From IMG/VR virus record IMGVR_UViG_3300035502_000579: a stretch of 52,289 bases of DNA. The stretch is one strand, 5' to 3'. The notes under the pieces are model-generated. The model was not told the origin of the DNA. It saw only the letters and a list, made by a program, of their open reading frames with translations, and did no database searches. The position numbers were made by a program, and so were the translations under genes. The stretch comes from a virus. Below are positions 40,757 to 41,280 of the stretch, piece after piece (position 1 is the stretch's first letter; every line of letters begins with the position of its first letter).

Positions 40757-41280
40757 ATGTCCGAATTAAATGTTTTTTCTAGTGGACAAAAAATCACAGC
40801 GCAAGAAATAAATGAAAATTTTTCAATTTTACAAGGAGGAATTAGTGTGAATGCAAAGATCGTTGGAACGGTACACGGGGGGGGGCTCCTACTAGCAGTA
40901 ACTCATCACTTTCTGTAACATTACCCACTACAGATTATGATTTTTTAACTATTAGATTAAGATATCCTGATATAGCAAAATACACTGCCCCCCCCAATAC
41001 TAATTATGGCTCCTATGCTATAGGTAGTTTTGTTTCAAATAGTGATATCTGTACTATAATAAAACCTTCTTCTTCATATACTTTTTATTTAAAAATTCCT
41101 TCATACGATAGTGGATATACGTTAAAAATTTATAATAATATATTAATAGGAAACGGAGAAAATGCTACTGGGACACTCGATAATGATACTTTAACAATAT
41201 CAAACCTTTATAGAATTGGAGTATATTATTAGGACCCTTTGACTTACACTATCGAAGTAATCCAATACAAATATTCTTAA
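40757..41280 (+). CDS. tail-fibre-like paralog 2, reading frame broken at a G9 homopolymer
   Basis: N-terminus MSELNVFSSGQKITAQEINENF parallels paralog 1. Frame shifts after GGGGGGGGG (40877-40885); one extra G restores ..VHGGGAPTSSNSSLSVTLPTTDYDFL.. through to TAA 41278-41280. Also contains a C8 tract (40988-40995). Confidence 0.45.

Follow-up and report, generated by a model that had tools for sequence, protein, structure and literature searches.

A candidate phase-variable poly-G tract in a TAG-recoded paralog of an uncultured phage

A run of guanines inside the second of two tandem paralogous genes sets the reading frame of that gene in an uncultured phage, and the length of the run, nine or ten, differs between metagenome assemblies that are otherwise identical. 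A change of one unit toggles the predicted product between 174 aa (P0010, with G10) and 53 aa (P0009, with G9). On balance, we favor the reading that the tract is a hypermutable contingency locus, with G10 as the ON state (174 aa) and G9 as the OFF state, which leaves only the 53-aa stub. The window, by which we mean the whole stretch of DNA analyzed, is a complete JGI contig of 52,289 bp, yet it represents a partial phage genome. The features of the locus on which the argument turns are the following.

40148-40175: (TA)14 repeat, ending 16 nt 5' of the ATG of paralog 1
40192-40725, plus strand: paralog 1, 177 aa, with in-frame TAG codons at 40279 and 40537
40757-41280, plus strand: paralog 2, 174 aa if the tract is G10 and the TAG at 41230 is read as Gln; this frame ends with TAA at 41278-41280
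40877-40885, plus strand: poly-G tract (G9) inside the open reading frame 40757-41280
40988-40995, plus strand: poly-C tract (C8), read GCC CCC CCC (Ala-Pro-Pro)
41230-41232, plus strand: in-frame TAG of paralog 2, read as sense (Gln), with the conserved C-terminus YTIEVIQYKYS downstream

The consequences of the tract length for the protein are straightforward. With G9, as in the window, the frame opened at 40757 reads ...GTVHGGG and runs into TAA at 40916-40918 11 codons on, for a total of 53 codons. One added G, equivalent to a -1 shift, fuses this frame to the one that ends with TAA at 41278-41280, and the sequence across the tract becomes His-Gly-Gly-Gly-Ala. The fused 174-aa protein aligns end to end with paralog 1 (44% identity, E = 2e-36), and the alignment covers both NVFS.G.KI.A.EIN.NF and LPTTDYD(Y/F)LT. 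It thus bears out what the first-pass annotation had reported of this pair: a shared N-terminus, a shared LPTTDYD block, a frame break in the second gene and its repair by a single G. The exact 174-aa product, with Gln at the TAG position, is moreover a called protein (P0010) on the Logan contig SRR11793812_18671, and Logan gene calling likewise yields the 177-aa product for paralog 1. Since G10 restores the frame that is conserved across strains and paralogs, it is clearly the functional state.

The tract itself is exceptional for this genome. The G9 and C8 runs, spaced 103 nt apart, are the only G/C runs longer than 6 nt in the whole 52,289-nt window (33.2% GC), so that their description as conspicuous in a 33% GC genome is correct: they are its two longest runs of G or C. 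A first-order model predicts about 0.02 runs of the G9 type, and as many of the C8 type, per window. In the codon usage of the window GGG accounts for 10% of Gly codons, CCC for 8% of Pro codons and GCC for 9% of Ala codons. The region of the G9 run is read CAC-GGG-GGG-GGG-G, with three GGG codons in succession; given the rarity of these codons, both this stretch and GCC-CCC-CCC are far from what chance would provide. Contingency loci are expected to present a homopolymer of about 7 nt or more within a protein-coding frame, and the G9 run is such a homopolymer.

The C8 run had been noted in the same gene, as a further homopolymer of a length typical of switching. The tract is real, and a switching role for it is not borne out. 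All five same-strain assemblies that cover it have C8, and a diverged strain lacks it and has GAACCTTAT instead; this invariance within the strain, together with the absence from its relative, gives no sign that C8 switches. Compensation of G9 by a change in C8 is also impossible, because the G9 frame meets its TAA at 40916, upstream of C8.

The central observation comes from comparison of assemblies. Six further assemblies of this strain share 1.6-10 kb each with the window, and a single substitution was seen among them all (in the contig L061). Insertions and deletions within the strain are limited to the G tract and to the (TA)n repeat at 40148-40175. The assemblies that span the tract are these.

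Window (JGI), 52.3 kb: (TA)14, G9, C8
Ga0376455_0000370 (sample 3300035501), 33.5 kb: (TA)15, G9, C8
Ga0376457_0004771 (sample 3300036769), 4.5 kb: (TA)14, G10, C8
Ga0484758_008562 (sample 3300043105), 3.2 kb: (TA)14, G10, C8
Logan contig SRR11793812_18671 (run SRR11793812), 1.6 kb: (TA) of at least 14 units, as the contig starts within the repeat, G10, C8
Diverged strain of about 96% identity (sample 3300035498), 39 kb: (TA)17, G10, C8 absent

The same-strain tally, window included, is two assemblies with G9 and three with G10, and the four that span the tract besides the window have no substitution relative to it. Some of these five informative assemblies may have a sample or project in common (the Ga03764xx series), and the libraries behind the Logan SRR runs may be those of the JGI assemblies. 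The remaining two same-strain contigs, L052, with (TA)15, and L061, end or diverge 5' of the G tract. The diverged strain retains G10 though it has lost C8; a second contig of this strain (L051, sample 3300035499) stops 5 nt short of the G tract. In the regions common to the assemblies A8, T8, C8 and all A7 and T7 runs are invariant, which argues against general homopolymer noise.

Homopolymers are a classic site of indel errors, and Illumina chemistry is known to be weak at poly-G. Accordingly, a sequencing or assembly error must be weighed, by which the tract would be G10 everywhere, the gene would be intact, and the G9 of the window would be a consensus miscall within poly-G. G10 is indeed the majority state, with three of the five same-strain assemblies and the diverged strain; one assembly breaks right at the tract, which indicates that the tract troubles assemblers; and the gene has no other lesion, as an intact gene would. 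However, both of the longest contigs (52.3 and 33.5 kb) have G9. Their (TA)n repeats differ, so they are separate assemblies, and one stray error is unlikely to account for both. Furthermore, no assembly has a length error at A8, T8 or C8, and the flip of a consensus requires a wrong majority of reads. We regard error as less likely than a real length polymorphism, although it is the most serious of the rivals, and the caveat on sequencing error given in the first-pass annotation stands.

Additional tract lengths were sought in larger collections. Among about 15 billion collected proteins there was none of the products predicted for G7, G8, G11 and G12 alleles, and a scan of genome contigs for the flank of the G tract returned no match. 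A variable-gap DNA pattern scan of metagenome contigs gave 40 loci, every one a chance match.

Apart from its one substitution, the contig L061 (JGI 3300043080) follows the window as far as the C-terminal end of the holin-like gene. Beyond the equivalent of window position 40059, a small ORF and a TAG-containing radical-SAM gene replace the paralog cassette. The junction reflects either a hot spot of recombination or a chimera made in assembly. This contig bears on the notion that paralog 2 is a decaying redundant duplicate, in which G9 would be an ordinary inactivating mutation toward pseudogenization and not a switch. The replacement of everything 3' of 40059 in L061 implies that the cassette is dispensable at this locus, and the tandem paralog could compensate for the loss of its neighbor. 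But the frame 3' of G9 is intact for 390 nt, the same as in the G10 alleles and free of any further lesion; an improbable tract has been kept across strains; and the identical one-base difference recurs among otherwise identical genomes. Decay is thus a very improbable account of the G9 allele.

For a homopolymer of this length the first-pass annotation had named both slipped-strand switching and programmed frameshifting. Slipped-strand switching finds support, as far as assemblies go, in the occurrence of G9 and G10 in otherwise identical assemblies and in the G10 of the diverged strain. If the phage relied instead on programmed -1 frameshifting by the ribosome, or on slippage of transcription at G9, a single allele would give the short and the long protein at a fixed ratio. 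The sequence G GGG GGG permits perfect -1 re-pairing of tRNA-Gly, the shift would land exactly in the homologous frame, and long homopolymers can provoke slippage by RNA polymerase. Nevertheless, G10 puts the gene in frame in three same-strain assemblies and in the diverged strain, where no shift is needed, so that the frameshift arrangement is not conserved in these relatives. The distant homologs P0004, P0007 and P0008 are single unbroken ORFs that do not have the tract, and no stable RNA structure was found 3' of it (fold of 40870-40990 against shuffled sequences, z = +0.41). We consider programmed frameshifting very improbable, although a G9 allele could leak some full-length product by ribosomal or transcriptional slippage.

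The contingency-locus reading that we favor would operate as follows. Paralog 2 would be a functional gene of a phage that translates TAG as Gln, with its reading frame running through G10, and polymerase slippage during replication of the phage DNA would gain or lose one G. Slippage of this kind may arise at a high rate and reversibly, the resulting G9/G10 polymorphism may serve bet-hedging, and the protein so controlled may be a virion-exposed host-recognition protein. Were the switch real, bet-hedging by simple sequence repeats in phage genes would reach beyond Campylobacter phages and laboratory coliphages to uncultured environmental code-15 phages, where a comparison of metagenome assemblies could reveal it.

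The true extent of both paralogs is set by the recoding of in-frame TAG codons, which had escaped the first-pass annotation. The phage reads TAG as Gln, as code-15 phages do. The homology between the paralogs crosses the TAG codons to reach a common C-terminus, Y(T/A)IEV(I/V)QYKYS; the peptide that spans the TAG at 41230, with Gln in its place, is IGVYYQDPLTYTIEVIQYK. The same C-terminus is found in P0004, P0007 and P0008 (160-167 aa) within one unbroken ORF. In paralog 1 of the diverged strain a TAG is aligned to CAA (Gln) of the window. For PhoH and the amidase, all three TAG positions tested correspond to Gln in the distant relative L055, whose copies of the two genes are in the standard code, and the Amidase_2 match runs over both TAG positions. 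With TAG read as Gln the paralog genes make sense, and only then. The JGI annotation, made with code 11, breaks them into pieces of 29, 78 and 53 or 158 aa (29 and 78 for paralog 1). Code-11 calling and a homopolymer indel together shred a real gene pair into five or six public "hypothetical" fragments.

Recoding extends over much of the window. Many genes have 1-10 in-frame TAG codons (for example 1797-2765, 5980-7590, 15239-16309, 36438-37745, 38457-39776 and 49104-51022), among them two radical-SAM genes, a GIY-YIG gene, genes with W-x-C-x-C-x-C-G motifs, PhoH and the endolysin; the topoisomerase, ligase, vault-like and flotillin-like genes have none. The W-x-C-x-C-x-C-G motifs are repeated in the products of 1797-2765 and 50027-51022, with 8 in-frame TAG codons in each gene, and the GIY-YIG gene at 49104-50093 also has 8; these genes are probably homing-endonuclease-like and heavily recoded. 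A tRNA array of 16 genes lies at 8263-19448 (15 found by ARAGORN and one by Rfam). None of these 16 tRNAs is a suppressor tRNA(CUA), and as the genome is partial one may lie elsewhere. The tRNA at 11793-11863, missed by ARAGORN and detected by Rfam with 41 bits, was considered as the missing suppressor and rejected, as its anticodon loop reads UGU (Thr). ARAGORN also reports odd anticodons in the array, Asn(ATT) and Ile(TAT).

Other genes of the window are unusual as well. A group I intron at 38826-39158 on the plus strand (Rfam RF00028, 63.2 bits against a gathering score of 50) splits the endolysin gene (Amidase_2 and SLH domains), and the amidase of L055 is uninterrupted, at 302 aa. The SLH domain of the endolysin suggests a host with an S-layer. 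A gene at 28719-31124 is RNA-ligase-like and holds an intein (Hint/Intein_splicing) with a LAGLIDADG endonuclease. The unusual cargo consists of three genes.

19848-21410: DUF2828/DUF7788 protein
22197-24629: protein of 810 aa with matches to the shoulder and repeat domains of major vault protein
34129-35568: flotillin/SPFH protein

The identity of the paralogs was examined by sequence and by predicted fold. Neither matched Pfam, PHROGs or NCBIfam, and comparison with the sequences of solved PDB structures gave chance-level matches only (E > 0.4). An exhaustive HMMER scan of 1.84 billion representatives returned three matches: the copy of the diverged strain, a fragment of paralog 1 and the distant homolog P0004. 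With a profile search, P0005, P0007 and P0008 were also recovered. None of the homologs from the HMMER scan or the profile search has a functional annotation. The locus matched none of 50,697 deposited phages by megablast or blastn, and the topoisomerase of the window is at most 35% identical to those of deposited phages; by these comparisons the phage appears to have no close relative among them.

The family is united by a module of some 35 aa at the N-terminus, N[LF]xLxxxxxGxK[IV]xxxxxNxNFxx[IL]. It is common to both paralogs, to P0004, P0005, P0007 and P0008, and to a third gene of the window; L055 has two adjoining genes with the module. In the third gene (below) it takes the form NLxLxxxxEGxKVxNxxFNxNFxKID. 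BLASTP found no significant similarity between the product of this gene and paralog 2, and distant family members connect the two. The third gene and the boundaries of the cassette are placed as follows.

37809-38438, plus strand: third gene with the N-terminal module, 209 aa, with TAG at 38232 and 38394
40116-40157: hairpin of 17 pairs between the holin-like gene and (TA)n, upstream boundary of the cassette
41277-41309, plus strand: terminator-like hairpin, 15 pairs and then T8, immediately behind the stop of paralog 2, downstream boundary of the cassette

At the other end of the proteins the strains differ. Their divergence is concentrated in the C-terminal half of each paralog (49-77% identity), whereas all other 100-nt bins are at least 90% identical and the overall identity is 96-99%. 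A conserved N-terminal anchor followed by strain-variable C-terminal halves is an architecture expected of receptor-binding proteins. The paralogs are predicted to be small beta-sandwich proteins; the matches of the predicted fold are modest, and the fold is generic. AF2 applied to the 158-aa product with four sequences reached a pLDDT of 37 and was unusable.

The genomic setting does not point to the virion. The neighbors of the cassette are PhoH, an endolysin, the holin-like protein, RNase H and topoisomerase II, that is, genes of lysis and DNA metabolism and not of the virion, and no virion gene was recognized in the window. The homologs all lie in syntenic regions of uncultured large phages, by a kinase, PhoH, endolysin, RNase H and topoisomerase II, and the synteny around the paralogs holds in the distant relative L055. 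No recognizable virion module surrounds the homologs. The label of tail-fibre-like, receptor-binding gene, as first given, therefore fails on homology and location, there being no family match and no virion module, and retains weak backing from fold and architecture. TAG codons have been linked to late-stage and lytic genes (10.1101/2021.08.26.457843). A role in host recognition is a reasonable if tentative proposal, founded on the architecture, the pattern of divergence, the weak fold hints and the TAG codons, and not on membership of a tail-fibre family.

The order of the cassette invites a broader conjecture. From 5' to 3' it consists of the 17-pair hairpin, (TA)14, paralog 1, paralog 2, and the 15-pair hairpin with T8. 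The (TA)n repeat is the sole long dinucleotide repeat in the window; it has 14, 15, 17 or 18 units in other assemblies, and several contigs end within it. It is conceivable, although we think it unlikely, that the tandem paralogs form a two-switch cassette in which (TA)14-18 and G9/G10 independently toggle two alternative host-recognition proteins in a large phage with a recoded stop codon. If this were true, a phage population would carry mixed adsorption specificities, and the cassette would be a natural case outside Campylobacter phages that can be read in metagenomes.

Comparison with known systems suggests a place for the locus among slippage switches. The G/GT-type tail assembly chaperones of lambda are made by a programmed -1 frameshift, in an arrangement conserved across relatives. 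As in lambda, a slippery run in a late phage gene joins two frames; in contrast to lambda, the relatives are here in frame. Among bacterial contingency loci are the (TA)n promoter repeat of the hif fimbrial genes of Haemophilus influenzae and the poly-G/C tracts of Campylobacter, Neisseria and Haemophilus. The present locus resembles them in a poly-G run within an ORF and in a variable (TA)n just upstream of the neighboring paralog. It differs in that the element is on a phage, and an effect of (TA)n on the transcription of paralog 1 is speculation. Code-15 phages, with TAG-to-Gln recoding, include crAss-like and Lak phages (10.1101/2021.08.26.457843; PMC9523058). As in those phages, in-frame TAG codons occur here in lysis and accessory genes and align to Gln of standard-code relatives; unlike them, the 16 tRNAs of the window include no suppressor tRNA(CUA).

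Contingency loci have been demonstrated in T2 and T4 (agt, rIIA) and in other phages (Gomez, Barrick and Waters 2025, PMC12633550). As there, the repeat is a homopolymer in a coding gene where slippage would shift the frame, and the changes in T2 and T4 are reversible and read as bet-hedging (PMC12633550). Their repeats are mostly of 6 nt or slightly more, in genes of known function and with measured mutant frequencies, whereas the tract here has 9-10 nt; that study also found such repeats to be under-represented in tail-fibre genes (PMC12633550). Sorensen et al. 2021 (Cell Rep 35:109214), cited in PMC12633550, describe tracts of 7-11 G in the receptor-binding protein genes of Campylobacter Fletchervirus. 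As far as that citation goes, the two cases share a G run inside an ORF of a low-GC phage, in which a one-base difference in length puts the gene out of frame and yields a shortened product. By the same account, tract variants coexist in Fletchervirus, whereas here the variation lies between metagenome assemblies and not within a sequenced lysate. On what is cited of Fletchervirus, lineage, host and protein family are unrelated to those of the present phage, which is uncultured, uses code 15 and encodes a putative receptor-binding function. Judged at the level of sequence, the locus looks like a slippage switch of a kind already known, here in an uncultured code-15 phage.
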